A DNA stretch of 63,092 bases, counting the filler, from Deltaproteobacteria bacterium (GTDB taxonomy: Bacteria; JAEEML01), in NCBI GenBank assembly GCA_016283195.1. It is 6 parts of 6 records of this genome, joined end to end, with 100 filler letters (N's around TTAATTAATTAA, not from the genome) between each part and the next. Parts side by side here need not be neighbours in the genome. Positions count along the whole stretch, not along the records: positions 1 to 5,914 come from JAEEML010000113.1; 5 more parts are not named here. One strand, 5' to 3'. The number at the start of each line of letters is the position of its first letter. The stretch's first letter is position 1. Positions 1-20,553 of the stretch are shown here, in pieces. Both the position numbers and the translations under genes were made by a program. The notes beneath the pieces are model-generated. The model worked only from the letters and a program-made list of their open reading frames with translations. It had not been told where the DNA came from and did not search any database.

Positions 1-566
1 ATAAAATCCCGCACAATATTGCGGGCGTTTTCATAAGCATCGGTAGAACGGGCAGCCAAGGTGTGGGCCCCGCGATGCACATTGGAGTTTTCATGAGTAT
101 AATAATAGGAAAGCCGGTCGATCACCGCTTGCGGCCGTTGAGTGGTGGCACCGTTATCGAGCCACACCAGCGGGTAGCCGTTTACGCGCTCGCTTAATAT
201 CGGGAAATCATTGCGAATTTGCGCCAAAGTTTTGCGGCCAATGCGAATGGATTCATCGCTACCGGCCGCCTGAGGCGGCCCAATGTGGCCCGCGCTCAGT
301 GTAGCCGGAGCAGCTTTAGATGCATTAGCGGCACTTTTAGGCTCCACTTTAGGAGCATAAGCCACCGATTCTGGCAAAAGTGGCGCCTCAGGCAGGCTAA
401 CAGGAACACTATGTTGCAAGCTAAAAGCTGCGGCCGGTGCCGGCTCCATGACCTCTTGGCCTACCCTTCCCTGCAAATCGGGAAAGAGGGCACTCGCCAT
501 AGCCGAAATCTCGGCTACCCCGGGCAAGCCAAAGTGCTCCGGGCCAAAAGTCTCAGTTGTAATCAT
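1..566 (-). CDS. Family 2A encapsulin cargo cysteine desulfurase (SufS-like), 5' part; runs off the window start
   Basis: Not in the ORF track. Manual translation from ATG at 566 gives MITTETFGPEHFGLPGVAEISAMASALF, a Pro/Ala-rich linker, then IRNDFPILSERVNGYPLVWLDNGATTQRPQAVIDRLSYYYTHENSNVHRGAHTLAARSTDAYENAR. These are the SufS N-terminal motifs (DFPIL, LDNxATTQ, NVHRG). The start overlaps the encapsulin 3' end. Confidence 0.93.
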   Translation of the reverse strand, partial: MITTETFGPEHFGLPGVAEISAMASALFPDLQGRVGQEVMEPAPAAAFSLQHSVPVSLPEAPLLPESVAYAPKVEPKSAANASKAAPATLSAGHIGPPQAAGSDESIRIGRKTLAQIRNDFPILSERVNGYPLVWLDNGATTQRPQAVIDRLSYYYTHENSNVHRGAHTLAARSTDAYENARNIVRDF

Positions 567-1512
567 AGTATTCACCAACTTCCACATCTTCCAGCACGGC
601 TATGGCATCATCGGCTAAAATGGCGGCCGAGCAATAGAGTGAGAGCAAATATGAAGCCACACCTTTGTCATCTATGCCGCGGAAGCGCACCGAGAGCCCG
701 CGGGAGTGTTCGTTTTTCATTCCGGCTTGGAAGAGGCCGAGAACACCGCGTTTTTCTTCACCGGTGCGGATTAGCAGAATATTGGTCTTGCCGCTTTTAG
801 CAGTGGGATTTTTAAGGCCGTCCACCAGCAATTTATCGGTTGGCACAATGGGAATACCGCGCCAGGTGAGGAAAACTCCGCCGGCAATATTCGCCACCAC
901 CGGCGGCACACCACGTTTAGTGCACTCACGCTCAAAAGCGGCTATGGCCCGCGGGTGAGCCAAGAAGAATGAAGGCTCTTTCCACACTTTGGTAATGAGC
1001 TCATCCAAATCATCCGGCGTTGGCGCCTCATTAAGCGGCTGAATACGCTGCGCAGGAGCAATATTCTTCAAAAGACCGTAATCATCGTTATTTATCAACT
1101 GGCTTTCCTGGCGCTCGCGCAGCGATTCAACGGCCAGAGAGAGTTGCTCCTGCGCCTGGTCATAAGGAGAACTGTACAAATCCTCAATGGCCGTATTGAT
1201 ATTAATAATAGTGGAAATTGAGCTTAAGCGGTACTCCCTGGGCTCGGTCTCATATTTCACATAACCGGCGGGAATAATATCAGATTTTTTGGTCTGGCTG
1301 CATAAGACATCAAGCGGTGTCTCGCCTTCAACCACCTTATTCACCCGGTAAATACCTGTTTCCAGCCCTTTAAATTCCAAAAATTTGGTTAACCATTTGG
1401 GAGTTAAAGCCCCGTATTGCGGCCGAGTTTTGGTAACATTTGCCAAATTATAAGCGGCATTAGCCTCCAAAGCATTAAGCCCGTTTATTTGTTTGCTTTC
1501 TTCGTTTGCCAT
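553..1512 (-). CDS. Family 2A encapsulin shell protein (SrpI / major membrane protein I type)
   Basis: 319 aa with AAYNLANVTKTRPQ...LTPKWL, GIYRVNKV, YETEPREYRLS, QLINNDDYGLL, PTPDDLDELITKVWKEPSFFLAHPRAIAAF, WRGIPIVPTDK and SYLLSLYCSAAIL. No room for a cNMP-binding insert. Adjacent to a cysteine desulfurase; GAGGAG RBS. Confidence 0.93.
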   Translation of the reverse strand: MANEESKQINGLNALEANAAYNLANVTKTRPQYGALTPKWLTKFLEFKGLETGIYRVNKVVEGETPLDVLCSQTKKSDIIPAGYVKYETEPREYRLSSISTIININTAIEDLYSSPYDQAQEQLSLAVESLRERQESQLINNDDYGLLKNIAPAQRIQPLNEAPTPDDLDELITKVWKEPSFFLAHPRAIAAFERECTKRGVPPVVANIAGGVFLTWRGIPIVPTDKLLVDGLKNPTAKSGKTNILLIRTGEEKRGVLGLFQAGMKNEHSRGLSVRFRGIDDKGVASYLLSLYCSAAILADDAIAVLEDVEVGEYYDYN

Positions 1513-1574
1513 TTTTTTCTCCTCAAAATAGTGCTTGTTTATAGCGCTTCTGGCGCGTTAACTATTTAAAATAA

Positions 1575-3038
1575 TTACAATCTCCCGCCTTCATCGGGAA
1601 AGACAAGATCCTTCATGGCGTCAACTCCGCCCTTTAAGCTAAAAAGCGGCCCTTTGTAACCGGCTTCGCGCAAAGTATTTACAGCCAAAATGCTGCGCTG
1701 CCCCTCTTTACAAATAAAAACCGTATCATGTTCAGGAGTTAACTCTTTTTGCCGCCTGGCCAATTGGCCAATGGGGATAACAATAGCCCCCGGGAAACGA
1801 GTAATGGCTCTTTCATGTGGCTCCCGCACATCGACAATAGTTATAGCCTCGCCGGCCGTTAGGCGATGCAGCAACTCCTCCGGGGTAATATTCTCCACTG
1901 CCGGCGCCGTTTCATCTTTTATAAGGCCGCATAATTCTTCATAATTAATAGCCGCAAGCTCGCTTATTGGCGCTTCTTGCCCGCAAATGGGGCAAGCACT
2001 GTCGCGCCCCACCGGCAGCACTTTGCTATAAAGATTCAGTGTATCAAAAGTAAGCAGCTTACCGCTGAGCGACTCACCGATGCCGATAATGATCTTTAAA
2101 GCCTCATTGGCTGCTATGCTGCCGATAATACCACCTAAGGGGCTGATGCTCCCACCCTCGGCACAAGTCGGCACAAGACCCGGCGCCGGCGGCTCGGGAA
2201 AGAGGCAGCGTAAACAGGGCCCGCCGCGCAAATTGAAGACACTAACCAGCCCCTCATATTGATAAATGGCGCTAAACACTAGCGGGATCCCGCTCAAAAC
2301 GCAGGCATCGTTCAACAAATACCTGGTTTTATAATTATCGCTACAATCCATTACCAAATCAAAGCCGGTAATGAGAGCCATGGCGTTATCGGCGGTAACC
2401 TGTTGATTTTCGGCAATAACTTCAATGCTTTTATTGATATTTCTTATGCTATCGCGAGCTGAGGCCACCTTCGGGCGCTTAATATCGCGCAGGCCGTGAA
2501 TAACCTGATTTTGTAAATTGCCCAGTGTAACTTCATCAAAATCAATAACTTTTATGGTGCCCACCCCGGCGGCTGCCAAATACTGAATCACCGGCGCTCC
2601 CAAAGCCCCGGCACCTACCACCGCCACCCGAGCGGCTTTTAAGCGCTTTTGCCCTTTTACGCTGATTTCGCGCAGTAAAAGATGCTTATTATAGCGCTCA
2701 ATCTCCTCGTCATTCAGGCTCACCGCTTTGCGCCGCTCTTCGGTGATAATACTTTGCGCCTCCTCCGGCGCACCACCGGCAATAAGCGGCAATAGCAAAA
2801 TTGGAGCACCAGCCGGTAACTTTTCGGCATGGCGTGCGGCAGACGTAAAATCTTCTTTGTTTACAAATACTTTGACAAAGTGCCGCAGCTTGCCGTTTTC
2901 GTCATAAAGGCCTTTTTCGGCATCCGGGTAAGCAGCAATAAGATTTTTTAGCACTTCTCCTACAGTCTCACCGGCGGCTTCCACCCGAGAAAGGCGTCCG
3001 AAAAACGACCTAAGTGTAGCCGATATAATAACTTGCAT
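1575..3038 (-). CDS. Three-domain fusion: CysO/MoaD-like ubiquitin-fold sulfur carrier + MoeB/ThiF (E1-like) adenylyltransferase + rhodanese (MoeZ-like)
   Basis: aa 1-89 form a beta-grasp domain ending LLPLIAGG. The E1 domain has GAGALG, DFDEV, DCSDN, Zn pairs CLRC/CPIC and PTCAEGG. The C-terminal rhodanese has IVDVREPHE...CKEGQRS...SLKGG. Confidence 0.92.
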   Translation of the reverse strand: MQVIISATLRSFFGRLSRVEAAGETVGEVLKNLIAAYPDAEKGLYDENGKLRHFVKVFVNKEDFTSAARHAEKLPAGAPILLLPLIAGGAPEEAQSIITEERRKAVSLNDEEIERYNKHLLLREISVKGQKRLKAARVAVVGAGALGAPVIQYLAAAGVGTIKVIDFDEVTLGNLQNQVIHGLRDIKRPKVASARDSIRNINKSIEVIAENQQVTADNAMALITGFDLVMDCSDNYKTRYLLNDACVLSGIPLVFSAIYQYEGLVSVFNLRGGPCLRCLFPEPPAPGLVPTCAEGGSISPLGGIIGSIAANEALKIIIGIGESLSGKLLTFDTLNLYSKVLPVGRDSACPICGQEAPISELAAINYEELCGLIKDETAPAVENITPEELLHRLTAGEAITIVDVREPHERAITRFPGAIVIPIGQLARRQKELTPEHDTVFICKEGQRSILAVNTLREAGYKGPLFSLKGGVDAMKDLVFPDEGGRL

Positions 3039-3039
3039 C

Positions 3040-3489
3040 TTAATAATTCTCCATACCGATACTTAAGGGCAGCTCACTGGCCTTTTCCCCAAAACTCGCC
3101 TTTTTCCAGAGAGCCCAATTAGGACAACCGGCGGCCCTAGCCGTCATAATGAGGTAAATCATGCCCGGTATCATATAGTGCTCGTCCTCGTTTGAAGGCC
3201 TTGGGACTTTATTTATATGAGAATGAAAAAAGCCAATAATATCATAGCCCATATCCGCATATTTTATTTCATAATCATATAATTCAAGCGGATTAATGCT
3301 ATAGTGGGCTCCGGCTTTTTCAGCCATGAGACTATTTTTTATGCCGGCATAGGTCGTTATTGTTGATGCTGGAGTACTGCTAAAAGCCCGCAGTAAAAGG
3401 CCGCAGCATTCTTCCGGATAAGCCGCCAGTGCATAGCTGGCCAGTTCTCGCTGCGTATTTTTGGGCAATATGTAAAGCGCCTCTGGCAT
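3040..3489 (-). CDS. JAB/MPN+ (M67, Mec-like) metallopeptidase
   Basis: YPEECCG plus an intact JAMM motif HSH-x7-S-x2-D (HSHINKVPRPSNED). Its stop is 1 nt from the next start. Confidence 0.9.
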   Translation of the reverse strand: MPEALYILPKNTQRELASYALAAYPEECCGLLLRAFSSTPASTITTYAGIKNSLMAEKAGAHYSINPLELYDYEIKYADMGYDIIGFFHSHINKVPRPSNEDEHYMIPGMIYLIMTARAAGCPNWALWKKASFGEKASELPLSIGMENY

Positions 3490-3533
3490 TGGCCTTCCCT
3501 TTGTTTAAGCGGTAGTAGCCACAAAAGTTGCTG

Positions 3534-3588
3534 CCTACCGAAACAGTAGGAATACATATTCCATACTAACCTACTATGTCAATAGGTT
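3534..3588 (-). promoter_or_regulatory. Promoter region with two palindromic operator boxes CCTAC-N7-RTAGG
   Basis: CCTACCGAAACAGTAGG at 3534-3550 and AACCTACTATGTCAATAGGTT at 3568-3588. The second contains a minus-strand TTGACA (3577-3582). Confidence 0.6.
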
Positions 3589-3651
3589 TTTATTTGTCGC
3601 TTAACACTCTATTAATGGGCTAAAATGAGCATATTTATTTTGAGCTGATGA

Positions 3652-4581
3652 TTATATTTTGTCCGCTGTATCTGCCAAAGCAAGTGGTGGATTTTCCTGC
3701 TTTTTTTCTCTATAAAACAGCCACAAAACTATAATAAGCATGGGAATCATAGAAATAATTCCGATTTGTGCCGGCCCCAAAATCATGTACTCGCCATAAT
3801 CGGCTCCCAGCAGGAGCAGCGGTAAAGCGCCGGCCGCATTGGTGGCGCCATGAAAAAGCGCCGGAGCCAAAATAGAGCCGGTTTTTAGCCGAAAATAGGC
3901 CAAAAGAGCACCCATTAAAATAGTGCTGAGACAAAAGAGCGGTGGCCCGGCCCAGGGGCTACCAAAGTAGTTTTCCCCATATTCATAGCCGATTAAAATA
4001 ATGATCGGCCAATGCCAAATACCCCACAAAGTGCCGCCGAGCACCAAACTCTTAACTGTACCGAGTTTATTGTTTAAATATGGGTAGATATAACCTCGCC
4101 AGGCCACTTCTTCACCCAAAGCCGGTATGGCATTAATAAATGGAACAACAGTTAACGTTTGAGCTAAAGATATAAAAAAGTAGCCGATCGGAGTCAGGCC
4201 TTTGTCAGTTAAAATTTTCATTAAATCAACTTGCTGCGCGCTTAGCTCCTTGGTTAAGTAACCGGCATTTGTATCAAAAGCCGCAGGAAAGCACAAAAAG
4301 AAAAGCAGTGCCCCCAAAAGAGAAATCAAAGCCGGTAAATAGCAAGCGCCCAGCCAATAGCGCCACTTGCCTTTTAGCTCTACTTTCCAACCAAGGCCGG
4401 CAAAAGTACGCCTAGCAATTAAAAGCGCCAGCATGGGCATAAACATCGAAACCATAAGCAAAGGCTCGCTAAGCGTCGGCCATTTATATTTCGCCAAGAT
4501 AGCAAAACCTTGCGCTATCCAGCCAAGCACAAAAGTAAGAATCAGAGTAATTATAAATACTTTTTTAGATGACTTATCCAT
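3652..4581 (-). CDS. CPBP (CAAX protease/Abi) family intramembrane glutamic endopeptidase
   Basis: Multi-pass membrane protein with EEVAWRG, WGIWHWP and FHGATN motifs; start taken at MDKSS. Confidence 0.88.
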   Translation of the reverse strand: MDKSSKKVFIITLILTFVLGWIAQGFAILAKYKWPTLSEPLLMVSMFMPMLALLIARRTFAGLGWKVELKGKWRYWLGACYLPALISLLGALLFFLCFPAAFDTNAGYLTKELSAQQVDLMKILTDKGLTPIGYFFISLAQTLTVVPFINAIPALGEEVAWRGYIYPYLNNKLGTVKSLVLGGTLWGIWHWPIIILIGYEYGENYFGSPWAGPPLFCLSTILMGALLAYFRLKTGSILAPALFHGATNAAGALPLLLLGADYGEYMILGPAQIGIISMIPMLIIVLWLFYREKKQENPPLALADTADKI

Positions 4582-4776
4582 TTTTGCTCCAAGCACATAA
4601 TGTCATAAAGGACTCAACATCCTTAGGCTTATTAAATACAACCGGTGGGAAAAAGAAATCAAGAGCCCATAAAAAAGCTTGCCACCGGCGTTAATGGCTA
4701 ATACAAAGTTCTTAGCTTTATCGGCCAATTATAGCTGATAAGTTGCTAAAAACACACCTATTTAAAGGAGGAAACC

Positions 4777-5220
4777 ATGGCCACACTGGTAACATTTTTC
4801 AGCGCTAAAGGTCACACCGCCAAAATAGCCAAAGAATGGGCCGAGAAAATCGGCGCCGATATTTTTGAAATTGTCCCCGAAAAGCCCTACACCACCACTG
4901 AAATTCTGTGGATGAACCCGCTGGCTCGCTGCAATAGAGAACAATTTTCCGATAAAGAGGTGCCGCTCAGCGCTGCCAAAGTAGAGGATTTTGCCAAATA
5001 CGACACTGTTTATATCGGCTTCCCCATTTGGTACGGCGCTGCGCCAAAAGTTGTTAATAGTTTTTGCAAAAGCTACGACTGGAGCGGCAAAAAGGTGCAT
5101 GCTTTTGCCACTTCCGGCGGCAGCGGCATCGGCAAAACAGCCGAAAAATTAAAGCCCTTTTTGCCCGGGGCCCAGGAAGTTGATGCCAAGCTCGTAAAAA
5201 GTGTTGCCGATTTGGATTAG
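4777..5220 (+). CDS. Flavodoxin (short, flavodoxin_4 type)
   Basis: FFSAKGHTAKIA, IGFPIWYGAAP, FATSGGSGIG; AAGGAGG RBS. Confidence 0.88.
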   Translation: MATLVTFFSAKGHTAKIAKEWAEKIGADIFEIVPEKPYTTTEILWMNPLARCNREQFSDKEVPLSAAKVEDFAKYDTVYIGFPIWYGAAPKVVNSFCKSYDWSGKKVHAFATSGGSGIGKTAEKLKPFLPGAQEVDAKLVKSVADLD

Positions 5221-5276
5221 GCCTAAGCATAAAGACAAGCATTGGATTTTATTAGCTTCTCGCCCCTCTCTATTTT

Positions 5277-5322
5277 CCCTCACCCCAACAAGTAGCGGAT
5301 TTTATTGGCAGCTCGCCTTTCT
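5277..5322. repeat. Dispersed intergenic repeat (CCCTCACCCC...GCCCTCTC family), copy 1
   Basis: Aligns by eye to the reverse complement of 30773-30819 and 30834-30876, and shares its end motifs with 26197-26245. Confidence 0.6.
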
Positions 5323-5459
5323 TTTCCAATGTAACAAGGTGAGAGGACTGGTTTTGAGGTAGCCGCTAAAGGCAGGCCAAGCTTACATCTTATATTATCC
5401 GCCGGCGGCGAGTTTGCGTTGAATTTACTCTGCCGGTTTGTAAATGGCACTTAACATTT

Positions 5460-5914
5460 TTACTTCGCCCGGTATTTCTTTTCCAGCTTTTTAACATCTT
5501 CCAAGAAGATATCAAAATCGCTCTGGTAAAGCCTATCCTGAATTATACGATAGTTTTCCCACTCAGTTTCCGCATGTTCCTTGGCCACTTCCATGCTGAT
5601 TTTTCCGGCGTTAGTCAGAATCTCCTGCTCATTGGCCACAAGAATACGGTCAAGGTGCCTAGCCCAATCTTCCATCGTCATAGGAATATTGCGACTCGCC
5701 TGCATTTCGGCAAAATCAAGATAGCCGGAAACAATTAGCTCCAAAGCATGAAGTTCATCTTTACTAATATAATTCTTGGCAACCGATACATCTGATTTTC
5801 TGATTTTAGCATCAGGACTGCCCTCCCACGATGTGAGTCCCATGTTTTCTTTATTACTATCGGCCCGCTCATAAATCAGTTCGGCCGCAGTGTGCTTATG
5901 AATTGCCCAATGCA
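5460..5914 (-). CDS. Virulence RhuM family protein, C-terminal part (cut by contig end)
   Basis: HWAIHKHTAAELIYERAD...MGLTSWEG...KSDVSVAKNY...YLDFAEMQA...MTMEDW...QSDFD, characteristic of RhuM. Confidence 0.85.
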
Positions 5915-6014
5915 NNNNNNNNNNNNNNNNNNNNNNNNNNNNNNNNNNNNNNNNNNNNTTAATTAATTAANNNNNNNNNNNNNNNNNNNNNNNNNNNNNN
6001 NNNNNNNNNNNNNN
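5915..6014. other. Artificial contig linker
   Basis: N44-TTAATTAATTAA-N44, with stop codons in all six frames. Confidence 0.99.
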
Positions 6015-6206: not shown

Positions 6207-7652
6207 TTATTGTTGGTTTTTTATCTGTAAGTGGCGCTGTGAGATGATCTTTTCAAAAGCGCTGGCAATGGCATCAATGAGTTGATAAAAATTGCTCATA
6301 TCGCCGCTGGGCGGCACTTTATCAGCACTATCGGCATAAAAAAGGCCGATAACTCGCTTGCCGATGTAAATAGGCAAAATAAAGGTCCTTAGCGGCCGAA
6401 TAGGCCCGCCGAGGCGCTTGAAAAAGCTGTCATAAAAACGGCTGGTGGCCGAAAGACTGCCCAAAAACGGCTGCGCATGATTAAAAACTTTGCGGAACTG
6501 CGAGCTCTGGTGCAAAGGAATTTTCATCGTATTGAGATTGGGGTTGCTCTCCATGCCCTCACCGACTGCGGCCCACACTTTGAGGTAATTTTGCTTTTCC
6601 ACCAAAAGCAAAACGCGCGGCCAGGTAACATGAGCATATTCCAACGTAATAGCGGCTATATCATCGCGCGAAGTGGCCAGAGCCAGTTTTTCAAAAGCCG
6701 AAAGCTCTTTAACATCTGCACTATCAGCTATTGTTTCTGCCTGAGCTGCCACATTAGCTGCTTCTGTAGGGGCCACCTCAGTAGCCGCGACTGGAGCGGC
6801 CTCCGGATTCGCGGCTAAAGGCTCCACATAATCATTAGCTACCGGGAGCGGCGCTGGCGCTGGGGTACTGACCTCCGCTTCAGCCGGAGCTGCGGCCGGC
6901 GGTGTGCTCTCGCTATGTTCGATAATGCTGTTTGATTCCGGAGTAGCTTGCAATTCGCTGGTCATTATCGCGGCATGGCGCAAAGCGGCATCCATAGAAA
7001 AAGTATTGCCATCTTCCTGCGAAAACTCAAAACTGGCATAAGTAAAAGCCGGCTCAGCCTCCTTAGGAGCGCTAAAATCGCTGTCATCACCGCTATCGAG
7101 CGGGCCGAGTTCATCGCCGAAACTAAGTTCGTTTAAATCTTCAAAAGATGAAGAATCGCTTGCGGCTTCATTATCGGCAACATCGGAGCCAACCACCTCA
7201 TTTTCGCAAAGATTACGAATTGTTTCGTTAACATAAAAATGTTGTATGGCTTGCTGAATCTGGCTGTCGGTGGCAATCACCGGCACAATTTTGAGGCCGG
7301 TTTGCTCCTTTATTTGAGCCAAATCTTCTTCTTTGGTCGGGTCAAAGATGGCCAGGTAGAGATAATTGCCGTTTTTGCGCAACGGAAAAACTTTTTTATC
7401 GCAAGCCAGCTCCATATCCACGGCGGAGAGGGCCTCCGGACTAACGCTGGCAAAATCTTCGGCATCGGCCAGGGGCAAATTGTACTCGGCCGATAAATAG
7501 GCGGCCAGATGGTGATCGGCAATAAAGCCCAGTTCCACCAGTTTGGAAAGCAAAGTGCCGCCATAGACAATATGGGCATTCATGGCCTCTTCTATTTGCG
7601 GCAGAGTAATATAACCGGCTTTATGAAGACCTAAGGCTAAGGCTAATGACAC
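6207..7652 (-). CDS. MshEN/T2SSE_N domain protein with acidic linker and C-terminal GAF-like domain (no ATPase)
   Basis: N-terminal L..AGYIT..QIEEAM...LVELGFI...LAAYLS, then VFPL...LYLAIFDP; acidic Ala/Pro linker; C-terminal ILPIYIGKRVIGLFYAD. Confidence 0.7.
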   Translation of the reverse strand: MSLALALGLHKAGYITLPQIEEAMNAHIVYGGTLLSKLVELGFIADHHLAAYLSAEYNLPLADAEDFASVSPEALSAVDMELACDKKVFPLRKNGNYLYLAIFDPTKEEDLAQIKEQTGLKIVPVIATDSQIQQAIQHFYVNETIRNLCENEVVGSDVADNEAASDSSSFEDLNELSFGDELGPLDSGDDSDFSAPKEAEPAFTYASFEFSQEDGNTFSMDAALRHAAIMTSELQATPESNSIIEHSESTPPAAAPAEAEVSTPAPAPLPVANDYVEPLAANPEAAPVAATEVAPTEAANVAAQAETIADSADVKELSAFEKLALATSRDDIAAITLEYAHVTWPRVLLLVEKQNYLKVWAAVGEGMESNPNLNTMKIPLHQSSQFRKVFNHAQPFLGSLSATSRFYDSFFKRLGGPIRPLRTFILPIYIGKRVIGLFYADSADKVPPSGDMSNFYQLIDAIASAFEKIISQRHLQIKNQQ

Positions 7653-13532: not shown

Positions 13533-13589
13533 TATAATAACCTCCCCTGATGTCCAGGGACAAACGGAGTGCCAACTCCAAGAGGAGGT
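13533..13589 (+). promoter_or_regulatory. -10 box and two-hairpin leader of paralog 1
   Basis: TATAAT at 13533-13538, CCCTG-ATGTC-CAGGG at 13545-13559, GGAGT-GCCA-ACTCC, then the GGAGG RBS. Confidence 0.5.
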
Positions 13590-13595
13590 TACCGC

Positions 13596-16500
13596 ATGAA
13601 GCCAAGAAGTAAACCGGCCCTGCTACTTATGTTCACTGCGCTTACAGCTTTTTCAAGCTGCCGGGAGACGCCGGAGCCTGTTCCGACTAAACCCAGTGGC
13701 CCAAGCCAGCAAGATCCGGTTCCCGGGCATGAATGCGGTACACTGCCTGTTCTTTCTTCCGGCAGTCACTGCGATGTTACCCTAGGCACCAATAAAGCTC
13801 TGCTCATCCGCAGTAATATTTTAGCCCCGAGCGAAGTTTTACAAGGCGGCTCGGTGCTGCTCGATGAAGACGGAATCATCCAATGCGTGGGCTGTAACTG
13901 CGCCGCTGAGAACCTGGCCGCCGGCGCCACCGTCATGGTTTGCCCGGACGCTGTTGTTTCCCCCGCTCTCATTAATGCTCATGAGCACATCGGCTGGGCC
14001 AAACTGGCACAGCCGGCCACCTACACTGATGAGCGCTATGAACATCGCCACCACTGGCGCAAAGGCAAAGCCAGCCACACTAAAATACCGCAACCCGGCA
14101 GCTCCAAAGCCGATGCCGACATTTTATACGGCGAACTGCGGCACTTTATCTCCGGCACGGTTTCCATGGCCGGTGCTGGCAAAGCCGACGGCCTTATGCG
14201 CAACCTCGATGAAAATCTCTCCGATACCAAAGAGGTGGGCGGCAATGTTTATAATCAAACCTTCCCGCTGGGTGATAACGACGGTAATTTATTGACCTCC
14301 GGCTGCAATTACCCCTGGAAAGACGACGTTCAAGATCTCAAAAACGAGTGCTATTTGCCACACATTGCCGAAGGTATCAACGCCGAAGCGCATAATGAAT
14401 TTCTCTGCATGAGCGGCCAGGGCAGCGGCAGCCGCGACCTAGTAGAGCCCAATACAGCCATTATCCACGCCGTGGGCATGAGCGCTATAGACGGCGAAGA
14501 GATATTAAATAACGATTCTTCCGTTGTTTGGTCGCCGCGCAGTAATGTCTCTCTTTACGGCAACACCGCCCCGGTCACCATGTACCACAACCAGGGCATA
14601 AACATTGCCATGGGCACCGACTGGGTGCTCTCCGGCTCAGCCAATATGGTGCGCGAGATGGCCTGCGCCGATTACATGAATAAAAAGCATTACGGCAGTT
14701 TCTTTAAAGCCTCCGATATCTGGCGCATGGCTACGGAAAACAGCGCCCGCGCTCTAAAAGTTGAAGACAAAATCGGCTTTTTAAAGAATGGCTACATCGG
14801 CGATATAGCTATTTACGCCTTAAACGGCGGTGCCAGTAGCCAAAATGTGGAAACTTATTATCAATCCATCATCGACTCCACTGCTGATGAAGTGGTCTTA
14901 GTTTTAAGAAGCGGCGAAATGGTCTTTGGCGATAGCGATATTTTTGATGCAGCCAATATTAACGATTGCGAATCCATGGGTGATGTCTGCGGCTCCACAA
15001 AAACTATCTGCATGACCGGTGCCCAATCAAAATATAGTGAAATAAAAGATGATGGAGCCTACAAGCTCTTTTATTGCAATAACAAATGGGAAGCCGAGCC
15101 GCCCTGCGTCCCGCAGCGCGATAACAAAGACAAAAACGGCAAAGTAATAGACTTTGGCGCCAAAGTCTCCACTTATGACGGCACTACTTCCAAAGATGAC
15201 AGCGACGGCGACGGCGTGCCTAATAGTGAAGATAACTGCCCCACTATCTTTAACCCCATAAGACCTCTGGATAAAGGCGTGCAGGCCGATACTGATGGCG
15301 ACGGCGTCGGCGATCTCTGCGACCCCTGCCCCACTGAGGCCAATACCACTGAGTGCAGTAAAGCCGATCCTAACGATCGTGATCGCGACGGCGTAAAAGA
15401 CGATGTCGATAATTGCCTTGGCAAATATAACCCAGTAGATGCGAGCGGCAAACAGCCCGATGCCGACGGCGACGGCAAAGGTGATGCTTGCGATGAATGC
15501 CCGAATGCCCCCAACCCCGGCAGTGCCCTGTGCCCGGCTATGGATTCTACTATTCCTGCCGTGCAAGGCGGCGAAGTGGCCGATGAAGTGCGCGTCAATG
15601 TCAGCGGCTACGTCTCGGCAATAGCCGCTAATACCAACAACAGCTTCTTTATCCAAACAGCCGCTTCATTTGCGAGCAAAGACGCAGCCAAAAATCAAGG
15701 TCTTTATGTCTATATAGACAAAAAAGAGACCGAAAATGTCAGCGCAGCCGGCAAGCTGAAAGTGGGGCAAAAAGTTACAGTTACCGCTACTGCCACCACC
15801 TTCCATGGCGAAAAAGAGCTCAATCTCGTGGAAAAAATCACTACCACTGACCCCACCGAAACTCCCATGATGCCGCTGGCTCTCACCATAGCCGACTTGA
15901 TAAGTGAAACTGCCACTCCTTATGAAGGTATTTTGGTCACCTTGAGCGATGTAAATGTGCTTACCGGCGGCACTTCTTATTTCTATATCGGCGAAAGCAC
16001 AGCCAAACTCTTGGTGGGCAACAAAATTTGGACTAACAGCATTCCGATCTCTACCGGCGCTACTTTAACCGCTATAACCGGTGTAGCCATGTTTGCCATG
16101 ACCGGTGATGCCAAAGACAGTGTCAGCACCATTGAGCCGCGCGGAAGTGCCGATATCGCCCAAGATTGCTCGGCCGGGAGCACTATTGTGGCCATGAATC
16201 CTAAAGCTATCACCTTAGCAGCCGGCGAAAAAGCGGCCATAACTCTCTCTATGAGCTGCCCTGATGCCGCCCAGGAAATTGCCTTAACGCCGGAAGATGC
16301 TTGCAGCGATCTCATCACTGTCGGTACGGCCTCTTTTGCCGCCGGTGCCGCCTCTGCCACCGCAGAAGTCACAGCTAAAGAGGGCAAAACCGGCAGCTGT
16401 AAAGTTAGTTATAACAATTTTGAAACGATGGTAACGGTAGCCGAAAAAGTAGGCGGCAGTGTTATAGGTTACAAAATCACTCTCACCAAAAACGAAAAAG

Positions 16501-16952
16501 GCGCTGCCGATCCCAGTAAACTTGTCGAAATAGATGTCCATAACTTTACCGAAGAGGCAGCTGCCGACACCTATGTGGTGGTCGCCAGAAAAATAGCCGA
16601 TTATGCCACTTGGCAATCAAAAGTGCCTAATTTGCCAGCGCAGGTTAGCGCCGATAAAGTCATATTTGTCAATTTGGGCGGCGGCACCAATGTGCAATTC
16701 AATGCCGATGAAGACGATCTTATCCGCCTCTATAAAAATGGCACCGAAGTCGAAGCGGCACGTCATTATATCGGCAAGAATTATGCTCTGCGCCAAAGCG
16801 ACGGCACCTTTAAAACCTCTACTGCTCCCCATGGTGCCGACGGTAAGGCCCCCAGCATAGTAACCGGAGTGAATGAACCGCTCTATCTTTATGAAACCGG
16901 CACCGGCATAGACAGCGGCAACGGCAACTACTTCATCTTCTACATTCCCTGA
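13596..16952 (+). CDS. Lipoprotein: amidohydrolase (deaminase-like) + thrombospondin type 3 repeats + OB-fold + C-terminal domain, paralog 1
   Basis: Lipobox FSSC; metal ligands NAHEH, PHIAEG, IIHAVG, GTDW; TSP3 repeats DxDGDGV...DNCP; OB-like FFIQ...GLYVY...GQKVTVTA. Confidence 0.8.
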   Translation: MKPRSKPALLLMFTALTAFSSCRETPEPVPTKPSGPSQQDPVPGHECGTLPVLSSGSHCDVTLGTNKALLIRSNILAPSEVLQGGSVLLDEDGIIQCVGCNCAAENLAAGATVMVCPDAVVSPALINAHEHIGWAKLAQPATYTDERYEHRHHWRKGKASHTKIPQPGSSKADADILYGELRHFISGTVSMAGAGKADGLMRNLDENLSDTKEVGGNVYNQTFPLGDNDGNLLTSGCNYPWKDDVQDLKNECYLPHIAEGINAEAHNEFLCMSGQGSGSRDLVEPNTAIIHAVGMSAIDGEEILNNDSSVVWSPRSNVSLYGNTAPVTMYHNQGINIAMGTDWVLSGSANMVREMACADYMNKKHYGSFFKASDIWRMATENSARALKVEDKIGFLKNGYIGDIAIYALNGGASSQNVETYYQSIIDSTADEVVLVLRSGEMVFGDSDIFDAANINDCESMGDVCGSTKTICMTGAQSKYSEIKDDGAYKLFYCNNKWEAEPPCVPQRDNKDKNGKVIDFGAKVSTYDGTTSKDDSDGDGVPNSEDNCPTIFNPIRPLDKGVQADTDGDGVGDLCDPCPTEANTTECSKADPNDRDRDGVKDDVDNCLGKYNPVDASGKQPDADGDGKGDACDECPNAPNPGSALCPAMDSTIPAVQGGEVADEVRVNVSGYVSAIAANTNNSFFIQTAASFASKDAAKNQGLYVYIDKKETENVSAAGKLKVGQKVTVTATATTFHGEKELNLVEKITTTDPTETPMMPLALTIADLISETATPYEGILVTLSDVNVLTGGTSYFYIGESTAKLLVGNKIWTNSIPISTGATLTAITGVAMFAMTGDAKDSVSTIEPRGSADIAQDCSAGSTIVAMNPKAITLAAGEKAAITLSMSCPDAAQEIALTPEDACSDLITVGTASFAAGAASATAEVTAKEGKTGSCKVSYNNFETMVTVAEKVGGSVIGYKITLTKNEKGAADPSKLVEIDVHNFTEEAAADTYVVVARKIADYATWQSKVPNLPAQVSADKVIFVNLGGGTNVQFNADEDDLIRLYKNGTEVEAARHYIGKNYALRQSDGTFKTSTAPHGADGKAPSIVTGVNEPLYLYETGTGIDSGNGNYFIFYIP

Positions 16953-17064: not shown

Positions 17065-17125
17065 TGCGATACTGGACTTCCCTGATGTCCAGGGGTTCTA
17101 ATGAGCGCAAGCTCGATAAGGGGGA
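17065..17125 (+). promoter_or_regulatory. Extended -10 box and two-hairpin leader of paralog 2
   Basis: TGcGATACT, an identical CCCTGATGTCCAGGG at 17080-17094, a GAGC-GCAA-GCTC hairpin, then the AGGGGG RBS. Confidence 0.5.
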
Positions 17126-17130
17126 TAATT

Positions 17131-20100
17131 ATGAAGGTTCGCAAGAGCACCGGCTTACTCCTCATGAGCACACTGGCTATGATAATGGCCAGCTGTGTGG
17201 TTGACTTGGAACAAGAACCTATGGATTATCCCTCCGGGCCCGGCACCGATAAAGGCCCGGTTATTACCGACAATACCGATATTGATAATACTGATATTGA
17301 TAACACCGATATTGATAATACTGATATTGATAACACTGATATTGATGTTCCTCCTAACGATACTACAATTGTTGCCAAAAAATGCGGGCAACTGCCTGTT
17401 CTGGCCAGCGGCGAGCATTGCGATGTCAGTGCCGGTACCAGCGGCGCTTTAATCATCCGCAGTAATATTCTGGCTCCCGGCACTGTTTACCAGGGCGGCT
17501 CCATTTTGCTGAATGAAAATGGCATTATCAAATGCGTTGGCTGTAATTGCGAGAGTGAAAGCCTGGCCGCCGGCGCCACGGTGCTTACCTGCCCGGATGC
17601 CGTAGTCTCCCCGGCTCTTATCAATGCTCATGAGCACATCACTTGGGGCAAAAACGCCAAGCCGGCAAATTACACCGACGAGCGATACGAACACCGCCAC
17701 AACTGGCGCAAAGGCAAAGAGAGCCATTCAAAAATTCCCCAAGATGGCAGTTCCAATGAAGATGACGACATTCTCTACGGCGAGCTGCGCCACTTAATGG
17801 CCGGGGCGCTCACTATGGCCGGTTCCGGCAAAGCTAAAGGCCTTATGCGCAATATTGATAAAGAAGATCTGGCGAGTGTCGTTGGTGGCAATGTTTATTA
17901 CCAGACTTTTCCTCTTGGCGACAGCGACGGCAAAATGCTTACTTCCGGCTGCTCTTACGGCTGGAAGGATGATCTCTCCAAACTCAAAAATGAATGCTAT
18001 ATGCCGCACATTGCCGAAGGTATTAACACCGCAGCTCATAATGAGTTTCTTTGCATGAGCGGCCAAGGCCAGGGCAGCCGCGACCTGGTGGAAGCCAATA
18101 CCGCTATTGTGCACGCTGTGGGCATGAGCGCTATAGACGGCGCCGAAGTAGCCGATAACAATGCTTCTATCATCTGGTCACCGCGCAGCAATGTTTCTCT
18201 TTACGGCAACACCGCCCCGGTCACTATGTATCACAACCAGGGCATAAATATCGCCATGGGCACCGACTGGGTGCTCTCCGGCTCAGCCAATATGGTGCGC
18301 GAGATGGCCTGCGCCGATTACATGAATAAAAAGCACTATGGCAGCTTCTTTAAGCCCTCCGATATTTGGCGCATGGCTACGGAAAACGGCGCTATAGCTT
18401 TAGAAGTAGATGACAAAATCGGCTTTTTAAAGACAGGCTTTATCGGCGATATAGCCATTTATGCCTTAAACGGCGGCGCCAGTGACGATAATGTGGAAAC
18501 TTATTTTCAATCCATTATTGATTCTACGCCCGACGAGGTGGTTCTCATTTTAAGAAGCGGCGAAATGGTCTTTGGCGACAGCGATATTCTAAGCGCTGCC
18601 AAAGTCAAAAACTGCGAATCCATGGGCGATGTCTGCGGCTCGTCCAAAACTATTTGCATGAGCGGAGCCAACTCTAAATACAAAGACATTAAAGACGGCG
18701 GCGCTTATAAGCTCTTTTATTGCAATAATAAGTGGGCTTCCGAGCCGCCCTGTGTCCCGAAACGCAATAATAAAAACAAAAACGGCCAGGTCATAAACTT
18801 TGGCAGCAAAGTCTCTACTTACGACGGCACCACCTCCAAAAACGACAGCGACGGCGACGGCGTATCCAATGACGAAGATAACTGTCCTACTATTTTTAAC
18901 CCCATAAGACCTATGGACAAAGGCGTACAGGCCGATGCCGACGGTGACGGCCTTGGCGATTTATGCGATCCCTGCCCGATGGATACCGATAATGATAAAT
19001 GCGGCCCGGCCACTCCTGGTGATCTTGATAACGACGGCGTCCCCGATAATCAGGATAACTGCCCGGGAAAATATAATCCACCTGATGCCGAAGGACTGCA
19101 GCCCGATGCCGACGGTGACGGCAAAGGCGATGCCTGCGATGAATGCCCGAATAATGCCAACCCCGGTGATGAAGTTTGCCCGGCAGTCAATACCACTATA
19201 GCCGATGTACAATCAGGCAAAATAAAAGTAGATACACGCGTTAATCTGGAAGGTATTGTTTCGGCGGTAGCAGCCAACAATCATAACAGCTTTTTCATCC
19301 AGTCCAAGGGTTCTTTCGCTTCTAAAGATGAAGCTAAATACCAGGGCCTTTATGTTTATATTGATGCCAAAGAGGCCATTTCTGCCAGCGCAGCCAATCT
19401 GGTTATCGGCAGCACCGTAAGAGTTAGCGGCACGGTTAATGAATACTTTGGGGAAAAAGAGCTGGGCAATTTGGAAAAATTGGAAGTTATGCGCACCAAT
19501 GTGGTAGATGTTGTGCCTTTGGAACTGGAAATTAGCGATTTCAGCTCTAAAACTGCCACTCCTTATGATGCTCTTTTAGCCACCGTTAAAAACGTTAACA
19601 TAGTTACCGGCGGCACCTCTTACTTCTATATCGGCCAAACCGGGAGCACAGGCAAAGTGCTTGTTTCCAATAAGATTTGGACTAACACCTCCTCTTTTGA
19701 AAACGGCGATGTTTTAAGCAGCGCTACTGGCATAGTTATGTTTGCCAAAACCGGCGATGCCACCGCCAGTGTCAATAGTTTGCAGCCTCGTTTTAGCGCC
19801 GATTTAGCCCAGGATTGTTCTGCTGGCAGCTCCATTGTGGCCATGAATCCGCCGGAGCTCGTTATCGGCAAAGGGAAATCCGGTAGTATTATTTTGAGCA
19901 GAAATTGTCCCGGAGAAGAAGAGGAAATTGAGCTGACGGCAGCACCGGAATGTGCCGGCCTCTTAACCGTAGCTCCCGCCTCTTTTAGCGCCAAAGCCGC
20001 TACAGCTTCGGCCACCGTAACAGCCGCCAATCAGATTGGTTCTTGCAAAATAAGTTATGGCAATTTCGAAACAACAGTAAAGATTATCAATGCCCAAGGT

Positions 20101-20553
20101 TATAGCATTGGCTTATCTATCAACGGGGCGGCCGCCGATACAATTTATACACTGGACGATGTAAAGTCCGATACCTATATTTTGGTAGCCAGGGATGCCG
20201 CTAGTTACGCCGCTTGGCAAGCCGGAGTAAGAACTCTCCATGATTTGCCGGCCCAAGTGCCGGCTGACAAAGTTATTTTTGTGAATTTACAAGACGAATA
20301 TCAATTCAACGGCAAAAAAGACGACACCATATACCTTTACAACTGGGCTGATCAGGTAATCTTTTCCCACCTCATTTCCGGCGGCTTTAACCAGCGGCAA
20401 AACGATGGCACTTTTGAGAAAAATGATGCTCCTGTAGGCGCCGACGGTAAAGCTCCGGCGGTTATCAGCGGCGTGAATGAGCCCCTATATCTCTATGAAA
20501 CCGGTATCGTCAGCGGTGGCACCTACAATTATTTCATCTTCTATATTCCCTAA
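17131..20553 (+). CDS. Lipoprotein: amidohydrolase + TSP3 repeats + OB-fold, paralog 2
   Basis: Lipobox MASC; same motifs and same C-terminus (NYFIFYIP) as 13596-16952. Confidence 0.8.
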   Translation: MKVRKSTGLLLMSTLAMIMASCVVDLEQEPMDYPSGPGTDKGPVITDNTDIDNTDIDNTDIDNTDIDNTDIDVPPNDTTIVAKKCGQLPVLASGEHCDVSAGTSGALIIRSNILAPGTVYQGGSILLNENGIIKCVGCNCESESLAAGATVLTCPDAVVSPALINAHEHITWGKNAKPANYTDERYEHRHNWRKGKESHSKIPQDGSSNEDDDILYGELRHLMAGALTMAGSGKAKGLMRNIDKEDLASVVGGNVYYQTFPLGDSDGKMLTSGCSYGWKDDLSKLKNECYMPHIAEGINTAAHNEFLCMSGQGQGSRDLVEANTAIVHAVGMSAIDGAEVADNNASIIWSPRSNVSLYGNTAPVTMYHNQGINIAMGTDWVLSGSANMVREMACADYMNKKHYGSFFKPSDIWRMATENGAIALEVDDKIGFLKTGFIGDIAIYALNGGASDDNVETYFQSIIDSTPDEVVLILRSGEMVFGDSDILSAAKVKNCESMGDVCGSSKTICMSGANSKYKDIKDGGAYKLFYCNNKWASEPPCVPKRNNKNKNGQVINFGSKVSTYDGTTSKNDSDGDGVSNDEDNCPTIFNPIRPMDKGVQADADGDGLGDLCDPCPMDTDNDKCGPATPGDLDNDGVPDNQDNCPGKYNPPDAEGLQPDADGDGKGDACDECPNNANPGDEVCPAVNTTIADVQSGKIKVDTRVNLEGIVSAVAANNHNSFFIQSKGSFASKDEAKYQGLYVYIDAKEAISASAANLVIGSTVRVSGTVNEYFGEKELGNLEKLEVMRTNVVDVVPLELEISDFSSKTATPYDALLATVKNVNIVTGGTSYFYIGQTGSTGKVLVSNKIWTNTSSFENGDVLSSATGIVMFAKTGDATASVNSLQPRFSADLAQDCSAGSSIVAMNPPELVIGKGKSGSIILSRNCPGEEEEIELTAAPECAGLLTVAPASFSAKAATASATVTAANQIGSCKISYGNFETTVKIINAQGYSIGLSINGAAADTIYTLDDVKSDTYILVARDAASYAAWQAGVRTLHDLPAQVPADKVIFVNLQDEYQFNGKKDDTIYLYNWADQVIFSHLISGGFNQRQNDGTFEKNDAPVGADGKAPAVISGVNEPLYLYETGIVSGGTYNYFIFYIP
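17275..17346 (+). repeat. In-frame 15-bp tandem repeat (TDIDN, about 4.8 copies)
   Basis: ACYGATATTGATAAY units alternating as a 30-bp higher-order unit. Confidence 0.9.

Follow-up and report, generated by a model that had tools for sequence, protein, structure and literature searches.

The Family 2A encapsulins of Acinetobacter baumannii (8T6R), Synechococcus elongatus (SrpI, 6X8M) and mycobacteria (Mmp1, 8WOL) combine a shell gene with the gene of a cysteine desulfurase that carries a disordered N-terminal loading region. Their published operon types, as given in the main texts of PMC10836720 and PMC8346489, consist of shell and desulfurase, to which nothing more than a stand-alone rhodanese and/or serine acetyltransferase (SAT) may be added. 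Shells homologous to the one analyzed below keep a store of elemental sulfur derived from cysteine (main text of PMC10836720). According to the main texts of PMC10836720 and PMC11659603, it is not known how this sulfur is remobilized or which protein accepts it from the encapsulated desulfurase, although a rhodanese is suspected. Here we analyze a cassette found in a stretch of 63,092 nucleotides from Deltaproteobacteria bacterium JAEEML01 (GCA_016283195.1), which as a whole is referred to below as the window. In this cassette a shell of the same family and its overlapping desulfurase gene follow the genes of a JAMM/JAB metallopeptidase (JAB) and of a protein in which a ubiquitin-like (Ubl) carrier, an E1-like adenylyltransferase and a rhodanese are fused. 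In contrast to the published Family 2A operons, the rhodanese of the window is the C-terminal domain of a Ubl-carrying E1, and a gene for a JAB peptidase is present as well. A preliminary description of the window had named rhodanese and SAT as the known partner genes of such shells, in agreement with the operon types given in PMC10836720 and PMC8346489.

The other half of the cassette also has described counterparts. The fusion together with a JAB is an established and widespread module, classified as type 4c by Iyer, Burroughs and Aravind (2006; PMC1779556), whose treatment of operon types includes the arrangement of Ubl, E1-rhodanese, JAB and cysteine synthase and a role of the JAB in freeing the carrier C-terminus. 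The window encodes the same Gly-Gly carrier, E1-rhodanese and JAMM peptidase as type 4c operons, and the adjacent sulfhydrylase is found in its relatives; it is missing from the window itself, and in the relatives it is MetY-like more often than CysM or CysK. Type 4c-like clusters, for their part, came without an encapsulin (0 of 78 loci) and without a desulfurase, which goes unmentioned in the operon descriptions of PMC1779556. The E1s of type 4e have no rhodanese and obtain sulfur from sulfite reduction via SirA/TusA according to the same descriptions (PMC1779556), whereas the E1 of the window has a rhodanese and lies beside a desulfurase compartment. An N-terminal Ubl within a larger protein that needs cleavage, or a JAMM peptidase, is known from Mycobacterium tuberculosis MoaX and from Deinococcus MoaD-MoaE, which is cut by DRJAMM (PMC4326299 and PMC8832034); the fusion partner there is MoaE, whereas in the window it is an E1, from which the carrier would have to be cleaved. 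Uba4-Urm1 and MOCS3 share the E1-rhodanese architecture and, in the accounts drawn on here, the logic by which a desulfurase persulfide passes to the rhodanese and then to a Ubl thiocarboxylate, but they differ in having a separate carrier, a free desulfurase, thiolated tRNA and molybdenum cofactor as products, and no maturation by a JAB.

The studied example of type 4c is the mycobacterial Mec-CysO-CysM system with MoeZ. Krishnamoorthy and Begley reportedly described in 2011 a thiocarboxylate-dependent synthesis of homocysteine by HcyS, HcyF, HcyD and MetY in Wolinella succinogenes, a pathway that corresponds to type 4e. As in the Wolinella system, the MetY-like O-acetylhomoserine sulfhydrylase of the window's relatives adjoins a JAB and a carrier-E1. 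Considering gene order, linkage among relatives and a shared operator, we judge it rather probable that the four genes of the window form one co-regulated unit, which would couple a sulfur-storing encapsulin to a protein-thiocarboxylate carrier pathway. What is particular here is that the Ubl-E1-rhodanese/JAB module is joined to an encapsulin, in one clade of gut anaerobes.

Organization of the cassette and its products

The cassette occupies positions 3-3489 on the minus strand and comprises, as deduced from the listing of open reading frames (ORFs) and from Pfam and NCBIfam profile searches for family assignment, four genes in the order JAB, Ubl-E1-rhodanese fusion, Family 2A shell and desulfurase cargo. 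The Ubl, E1 and rhodanese belong to a single ORF of 487 aa, hence the total of four. The genes of the JAB, the fusion and the shell are intact, while that of the cargo is truncated by the window edge, leaving an ORF of 195 aa that is open at its 3' end. The JAB stop codon is placed 1 nt (3039) ahead of the fusion's start codon, a spacer of 62 nt with a GAGGAG ribosome-binding site (1513-1574, minus strand) separates the fusion from the shell, and the shell and cargo genes overlap by 35 nt (553-587), an overlap that shrinks to 14 nt if the second Met-rich site of the cargo is its start. The four genes are co-directional and translationally coupled; the preliminary description had reported four tightly coupled minus-strand genes with gaps of 1 nt and 62 nt and an overlap, which is confirmed here. 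For comparison, a shell-protein scan with one genome per species yielded at least 523 relatives, of which the best 80, with shells 83-89% identical to that of the window, were kept (L001-L080).

The shell gene (553-1512, minus strand) encodes a protein of 319 aa that matched NF041162 with 474.3 bits (cut-off 380) and PF19307 with 310.5 bits. It is an HK97-fold Family 2A shell without the cyclic nucleotide-binding insertion, and it reached 370 bits against the Family 2B model, whose cut-off is 400. Matches to shells in the PDB ranged from 331 to 363 bits and included 8T6R (363), SrpI 6X8M (354.5) and 8WOL. The cargo gene (3-587, minus strand) provides the N-terminal 195 residues of a cysteine desulfurase, which matched NF041166 over residues 120-195 (148.6 bits) and PF00266 over residues 141-195; the NF041166 score stays under the cut-off of 800 bits because just 195 residues are present. 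Residues 1 to about 120 form a long, disordered region for loading, in which the motif ISAMASALF is placed at residue 27; a SufS-type domain begins after this region, and a loading-type motif was detected in 46 of 74 desulfurases of the relatives. The catalytic Cys and Lys are seen in the relatives only, since the window gene ends earlier. By analogy with homologues, the window shell would assemble, load its cargo and store sulfur (PMC10836720, PMC8049743 and PMC11659603, in their main texts).

A metagenome contig of 5914 nt (L081), which is independent of the window and identical to its sequence, stops at the same point inside the cargo gene, and another one (L082) is shorter. The shared break falls in the disordered region of the cargo, and the common contig end is probably an assembly problem in a repetitive or variable stretch.

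The fusion gene (1575-3038, minus strand; 487 aa) combines PF02597, PF00899 and PF00581. Its Ubl domain, a MoaD/CysO/SAMP1-like beta-grasp, spans residues 1-89 (2772-3038, minus strand; PF02597 at residues 3-89) and ends in PLIAGG, the codons of Gly88-Gly89 being located at 2772-2777 on the minus strand. A beta-grasp carrier with a terminal Gly-Gly is thus present, but as a domain that needs release. Residues 116-350 (1989-2693, minus strand) make up an E1-like adenylyltransferase core of the MoeB/ThiF/MoeZ type (PF00899, 240.7 bits), for which the solved-chain matches were MoeB (1JW9) and, over residues 107-482 and with 171.9 bits, Uba4 (6YUB). This E1 is followed by a C-terminal rhodanese domain at residues 385-476 (1611-1886, minus strand; PF00581, 49.2 bits), whose loop C443-KEGQ-R-S bears the active-site cysteine (Cys443 codon at 1710-1712, minus strand).

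Alignment of 46 to 48 fusions showed that P84, A87, G88 and G89 of the Ubl are invariant, as are the E1 cysteines (the zinc cysteines of the CxxC pairs C275/C278 and C349/C352, and C292 in a loop) and C443, G446, R448 and S449 of the rhodanese (C443-x2-G-x-R-S), while the linker past the Gly-Gly is variable and gapped. An AlphaFold 2 model of the fusion had a mean pLDDT (predicted local distance difference test) of 86, with values below 50 at residues 87-91, that is, at the Gly-Gly junction, and at the hinge between E1 and rhodanese. The JAB gene (3040-3489, minus strand; 149 aa; PF14464, 47.8 bits) encodes Glu27 and H89-S-H-x7-S-x2-D, which together form the E...HxHx7SxxD signature of a JAMM peptidase; HxHx7SxxD was present in the window JAB and in all 52 of the upstream JABs of the relatives, and the closest solved chain was 2KCQ. 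A putative cleavage past Gly89 fits the JAMM neighbour, the invariance of AGG, the variability of the linker and the low confidence of the model at the junction. The same layout, in which a variable linker and a P[AS]IAGG junction connect the Ubl to the E1, was observed in 12 of 14 metagenome loci that were checked.

Linkage of the carrier module and the shell, and a shared operator

In order to quantify the linkage, we searched the loci of the best 80 relatives by tblastn with the window proteins and counted those with enough flank only. The record titles of these relatives name Lachnospiraceae and other Clostridia, Fibrobacter, Ruminobacter/Succinivibrionaceae and single Treponema and Bacteroides bins. 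A rhodanese was encoded immediately 5' of the shell in 77 of 78 loci, the E1 in 75 of 76, the Ubl in 71 of 72 and the JAB in 64 of 70, and the cargo was found in 75 of 76. Rhodanese, E1 and Ubl were missed in one locus, L041, where a SAT gene separates the shell from the fusion, which is located 1.1 kb farther upstream. The one locus without a cargo match, L005, reflects a weakness of the query, as an ORF that clusters with the desulfurases is present. Where the JAB is not found upstream, a second one is encoded downstream. Median gaps were 4.5 nt between JAB and E1 (n = 52), 75 nt between E1 and shell (n = 74) and −23 nt between shell and cargo (n = 69). This linkage is far beyond chance.

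We also searched 301 sampled Lachnospiraceae genomes, the same ones for shell and for E1. A shell above the cut-off was present in 7 of them (8 shells, one genome having two), and in all 7 an E1-rhodanese 50-70% identical to that of the window lay within about 250 nt of each shell, the match in G1202 being without a fused Ubl. By contrast, the E1-rhodanese fusion was found in none of the 294 shell-less genomes, where the nearest sequence was one 37% match with an internal stop; 41 of these shell-less genomes had a rhodanese-less E1 of about 44% identity. Adjacency in 7 of 7 genomes versus absence from 294 indicates that the rhodanese-bearing fusion and the shell are gained and lost together, with the reservation that these counts are not independent events, as the genomes are related. 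In G1277 two pairs of fusion and shell were observed (contigs C40 and C26), with fusions 67% and 50% identical to that of the window.

Beyond the cassette, ORF clustering and family searches yielded a consensus locus for the relatives that runs from an Rrf2/CymR-like regulator through MetY or CysK, JAB, Ubl-E1-rhodanese, shell and cargo to SAT, ThiS, a rhodanese-less ThiF, a second JAB and TusA. The regulator was found in 19 loci. A sulfhydrylase was encoded 5' of the JAB in 45 of 65 loci (36 MetY, 8 CysK, 1 both), and downstream of the cargo SAT was present in 47 of 52 loci, ThiS in 39, the second E1 in 40 and TusA in 38. Frequent extras are a sulfite-reductase-like gene, a thioredoxin and a second MetY, and transporters also occur in the locus. 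The second carrier set (ThiS, rhodanese-less ThiF, JAB and TusA; for instance, L003:12615-14318) is present in about three quarters of the relatives and presumably corresponds as well to the HcyS/HcyF/HcyD/MetY homocysteine pathway of Wolinella. The second ThiS ends in GG plus 1-2 additional residues, which implies that it also needs trimming. Among the operon types described by Iyer et al., this second set matches type 4e (PMC1779556).

With the Family 2A model, shells were detected in sampled Bacillota (8 of 401 genomes), Pseudomonadota (12 of 401) and Spirochaetota (25 of 301). We examined 34 of these 45 contexts, leaving out three seed genomes and 8 Spirochaetota genomes; 4 of the 34 were Family 2B-like. 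An E1-rhodanese was found in two of the 34 contexts, a locus of the rumen clade with an 86% identical shell and a spirochaete locus with a 68% identical one, in which the almost gapless order is CysK, JAB, Ubl-E1-rhodanese, shell, cargo, SAT, a MetNIQ-type transporter and MetY. The more distant sampled shells (45-67% identity) came without the arrangement of the window.

The components of the cassette differ in how strongly they are conserved. Across 49 loci with four phylum labels, mean identity was 91.4% for the shell, 85.1% for the catalytic domain of the cargo, 65.9% for the E1 and 34.5% for the JAB, and the far higher conservation of shell and cargo points to a very strong constraint on the putative compartment. 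The pairwise distances of the same four sequences were correlated (Mantel r of 0.51-0.70, in the 49 of the 80 loci that had all genes complete). A quick maximum-likelihood tree of 75 fusions with four phylum labels required just 3 label changes, the 11 Fibrobacterota rows forming one clade and the 3 Pseudomonadota rows another one within Bacillota, and it placed the fusion of the window on a long branch, nearest to Lachnospiraceae rows. This pattern suggests that the cassette as a whole was transferred a few times long ago and was probably passed on by vertical descent thereafter.

A further link between the window and its relatives was found in the promoter region. Located 81 nt 5' of the JAB start codon, the 17-mer CCTATTGACATAGTAGG (3570-3586, minus strand) forms a palindromic CCTA-N9-TAGG box with a perfect −35 element, TTGACA, inside it and constitutes a candidate promoter/operator. 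Allowing up to 3 mismatches, it is the sole match in the 63-kb window, whereas 20 mononucleotide shuffles had a mean of 0.15. With up to 2 mismatches, 34 of 65 relatives have the 17-mer no more than 4.6 kb upstream of the shell, and there the sites cluster 3-4 kb upstream, ahead of the first gene (Rrf2, MetY, CysK or JAB) and with the extended consensus ACCTATTGACATAGTAGGTAAAT; no site was detected in 1.42 Mb of other loci. A second, looser CCTA-N9-TAGG box (3534-3550, minus strand) lies 19 nt from the first and may be an operator half-site or a hairpin in the 5' untranslated region. The two boxes are the only CCTA-N9-TAGG matches in the window, but 13 of 100 shuffles also reached 2, so that the count alone is weak. 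Taken with the sites of the relatives, the 17-mer is good evidence that the window operon would be controlled like theirs. Given the frequent Rrf2 neighbour, an Rrf2/CymR-type repressor is the likely binder of the operator, and the conserved operator can be used for finding the regulon. In the Fibrobacter loci L068-L072 and L076 a CCTA-N9-TAGG box is located 55-65 nt before the shell gene, and this box is absent from the spacer of the window; its position suggests an internal promoter for shell and cargo that may be similarly regulated.

Other elements of the region gave weaker signals. A weak hairpin overlapping the end of the fusion gene (1581-1601, minus strand) and a TTGGCA-16-TATAAT site at 3678-3651 are weak hints, and consensus scans stayed near the level of shuffled sequence for promoters (9 vs 7.9) and terminators (15 vs 7.8 ± 3.0). 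As regards riboswitches or leader RNAs, no fitting Rfam family was found in positions 1-6000 of the window at E values up to 1 (two chance-level matches), nor was any Rfam family found upstream of the cassette in 7 relatives.

A proposed route for encapsulated sulfur and its alternatives

When a rhodanese is fused to an E1 enzyme, the enzyme is supplied with persulfide sulfur mobilized by a cysteine desulfurase, as in the MOCS3/Uba4 and ThiI systems. The sole desulfurase in the operon is the encapsulated one, and we regard it as moderately likely that its sulfur leaves the encapsulin for the rhodanese, is passed on as a Ubl thiocarboxylate and ends in the synthesis of homocysteine or cysteine. 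In outline this agrees with the reading of the preliminary description, which the present results support in part. The steps set out here follow from the chemistry of the protein families, with the exception of the desulfurase step, for which there are data on homologues. A promoter overlapped by the conserved palindromic operator would drive JAB, Ubl-E1-rhodanese, shell and cargo. The JAB would then cleave the pro-protein past Gly89 and produce a free carrier of 89 residues with a Gly-Gly carboxylate, a cut that is required because adenylation needs a free C-terminal carboxylate, and the E1 domain would adenylate this carrier. Inside the shell, the desulfurase would convert cysteine to alanine and sulfane sulfur retained there, a step of conversion and storage that was shown for homologues in Acinetobacter, Synechococcus and Mycobacterium. 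Cys443 of the rhodanese would take up the sulfur, probably at or near the shell or via a small persulfide carrier, and the acyl-adenylate would become a thiocarboxylate. Finally, a pyridoxal phosphate (PLP)-dependent sulfhydrylase, MetY-like or CysK in the relatives, would combine the thiocarboxylate with O-acetylhomoserine or O-acetylserine, and the JAB would free homocysteine or cysteine so that the carrier is recycled.

More tentatively, the encapsulin may be a dedicated sulfur-donor organelle on which the E1-fused rhodanese, as the acceptor long sought, docks or from which it draws, the carrier feeding mainly a MetY-type enzyme and a single JAB both maturing the carrier and releasing the amino acid. 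Co-encapsulation of E1 and JAB as a default was considered and rejected, as neither carries a loading-type motif. When the complex of a dimer of the desulfurase catalytic domain with the rhodanese (both from L006) was predicted, the score was 0.00 in two runs made without controls, which speaks neither for nor against a contact.

Several observations weigh against such a coupling. The sulfur hand-off itself we infer from gene linkage. A cargo-loading motif was found in none of 74 fusions and in none of the upstream JAB ORFs of the 52 loci that have one, which places both proteins probably outside the shell and makes an intermediate or docking step necessary. Where the neighbour is CysK, sulfur taken from cysteine would remake cysteine, which is sensible only as storage and release. 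In the window, the gene upstream of the JAB is a CPBP protease gene and not one for a sulfhydrylase, and tblastn searches for relatives of MetY, CysK, SAT, ThiS, TusA and Rrf2 found none in its 63 kb. The sulfhydrylase for which the preliminary description proposed to look is encoded upstream of the JAB in 45 of 65 relatives, whereas in the window, where the cluster is cut within the cargo gene, no PLP sulfhydrylase of the CysM, CysK or MetY kind was seen. Moreover, both modules work alone elsewhere. No E1 was found in 32 of the 34 distant Family 2A/2B contexts (shells 45-67% identical), most of which have a SAT gene, and no shell was found in 78 metagenome loci centred on a JAB (soil, peat and others; the window's own sequence excluded), many of which are clusters of CysM or CysK, JAB and Ubl-E1-rhodanese. 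The gene linkage proposed in the preliminary description accordingly holds in gut and rumen relatives (77 of 78 loci and all 7 shell-bearing Lachnospiraceae) and breaks down in those 32 distant contexts.

This independence of the modules is what favours the alternative to which we give the greatest, although clearly lesser, chance: that the cassette joins co-regulated neighbours without any hand-off, two independent responses to sulfur limitation within one sulfur island, the rhodanese drawing on thiosulfate, a free desulfurase, sulfide or some other donor. The locus of the relatives is indeed a broad cysteine and methionine island, with SAT, the second carrier set, the sulfite-reductase-like gene, thioredoxin and transporters, and the second, rhodanese-less E1 is at home in 41 Lachnospiraceae genomes that have no shell. 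The rhodanese-bearing fusion behaves differently from that second E1, being absent from all 294 shell-less Lachnospiraceae and adjacent to the shell in 7 of 7 that have one, and it stands immediately 5' of the shell in 77 of 78 loci under four phylum labels. In addition, its rhodanese domain is unusually conserved. In 46 encapsulin-linked fusions the rhodanese was the domain with the highest mean pairwise identity (75.9%, with 68.2% in the E1 and 47.7% in the Ubl), as opposed to 59.0% for the rhodanese and 72.9% for the E1 in shell-unlinked fusions, and in pairs matched at 50-70% E1 identity the rhodanese reached 73.1% when linked (601 pairs) and 51.7% when unlinked (33 pairs), a comparison weakened by an unlinked set of 10 sequences and by the fact that related sequences are not independent. 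The conservation of the rhodanese fits a need to match the very conserved shell or cargo.

A reverse flow of sulfur appears improbable. According to this explanation, the thiocarboxylate pathway with SAT and CysK would make cysteine from the abundant sulfide of the gut, and the encapsulated desulfurase would deposit its sulfur in inert form, so that the cassette would be a line of sulfide detoxification and storage and not an exit route. Such a flow would suit hosts that are gut and rumen anaerobes with SAT and CysK as frequent neighbours, and homologous shells do store cysteine-derived elemental sulfur (main text of PMC10836720); however, an E1 with a fused rhodanese is the persulfide-receiving form, while the type fed by sulfide or sulfite has no rhodanese and relies on SirA/TusA in the operon descriptions of PMC1779556 and is here encoded as a separate second module. 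MetY (36 of 65 loci) is also a commoner neighbour than CysK (8 of 65).

It is likewise hardly probable that the freed Ubl serves in the first place for conjugation, being attached in the manner of SAMP or Urm1 to lysines of the shell, the cargo or other proteins, with the JAB as deconjugase, an alternative that the preliminary description had raised for shell and cargo. Urm1 and the SAMPs act both as carriers and as modifiers in the accounts that treat them, conjugation was put forward as a speculation for JAB-linked E1 systems in the discussion by Iyer et al. (PMC1779556), and weak matches below the cut-off were obtained with the SAMP1 model NF041918 (43.6 bits) and the desampylase model NF041370 (46.1 bits), the SAMP-E1 model also giving a sub-threshold match. 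But the cassette showed no E2- or E3-like gene, and both the invariance of the rhodanese cysteine and the recurrence of sulfhydrylase and SAT genes nearby indicate sulfur chemistry, alongside which conjugation could be a side activity. Least of all do we expect thiolation of cofactors or tRNA (molybdopterin, thiamine or 2-thiouridine, in the way of MOCS3/Uba4 or TtuC/TtuB, with the desulfurase as general donor): the best named models for the fusion were MoeB and MoeZ, at 371-373 bits and all below their cut-offs (NF005902 MoeZ, 371 bits vs 647), and its nearest solved E1-rhodanese is Uba4 (6YUB), yet the cassette holds no MoaE, ThiG or tRNA thiolase gene and, of the five cassette genomes searched, one had MoaE and three had ThiG, always on other contigs, with G001 having neither, which makes a use in cofactor synthesis unlikely.

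Neighbouring genes and significance for gut anaerobes

Upstream of the JAB gene a gap of 162 nt is followed by the gene of the CPBP intramembrane protease. An ORF of 127 aa (5460-5843, minus strand) matches just positions 150-249 of the 252-position RhuM model and is probably a gene remnant; it sits in a stretch of lower GC content (about 41-44%) between the cassette and housekeeping genes. A protein of 481 aa (6207-7652, minus strand) has an MshEN domain at its N-terminus and continues in a long acidic, Ala/Pro-rich region of low complexity. A pair of paralogous ORFs, of 1127 and 1150 aa, lies in tandem at 13569-16952 and 17101-20553 (plus strand). Each encodes a TRZ/ATZ-like amidohydrolase domain and, after it, a region with weak matches to models of cell-surface repeats, and such large secreted amidohydrolases in tandem are unusual. 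As for the host, a fusion of 1072 aa (30891-34109, minus strand), which joins a GltD-like NAD(P)H-binding flavoprotein to a group A [FeFe] hydrogenase, confirms that it is anaerobic, and an aminotransferase of the window was at most 39% identical to any of the five cassette genomes tested, so that the host is not close to them.

While the component families are known, their combination is not described in the main texts of PMC10836720, PMC8346489, PMC8049743, PMC11659603 and PMC1779556. We found no description of a linkage between an encapsulin and a Ubl-E1-JAB module in the literature searched, although supplementary neighbourhood tables could list PF00899 or PF14464 without comment. The preliminary description, whose author did not recognize this operon class as characterized, is consistent with this result, as no paper describing the class was found.

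The cassette joins two fields that have not yet met in print, those of encapsulins and of prokaryotic ubiquitin-like sulfur carriers. It names candidates for the unknown exit of encapsulated sulfur, namely an E1-fused rhodanese, a cleavable Ubl carrier and a JAB peptidase, which in the sampled genomes are inherited strictly together with the shell, and it turns an open question about encapsulins into one that is directly testable with four or five genes. If the more tentative reading, with a MetY-type enzyme as the main recipient, is true, it would constitute a protein-borne transfer of sulfur from cysteine to homocysteine that bypasses cystathionine. The cassette also suggests how abundant fibre degraders of the rumen, such as Fibrobacter, Butyrivibrio-type Lachnospiraceae and Succinivibrionaceae, may manage sulfur for methionine and cysteine.

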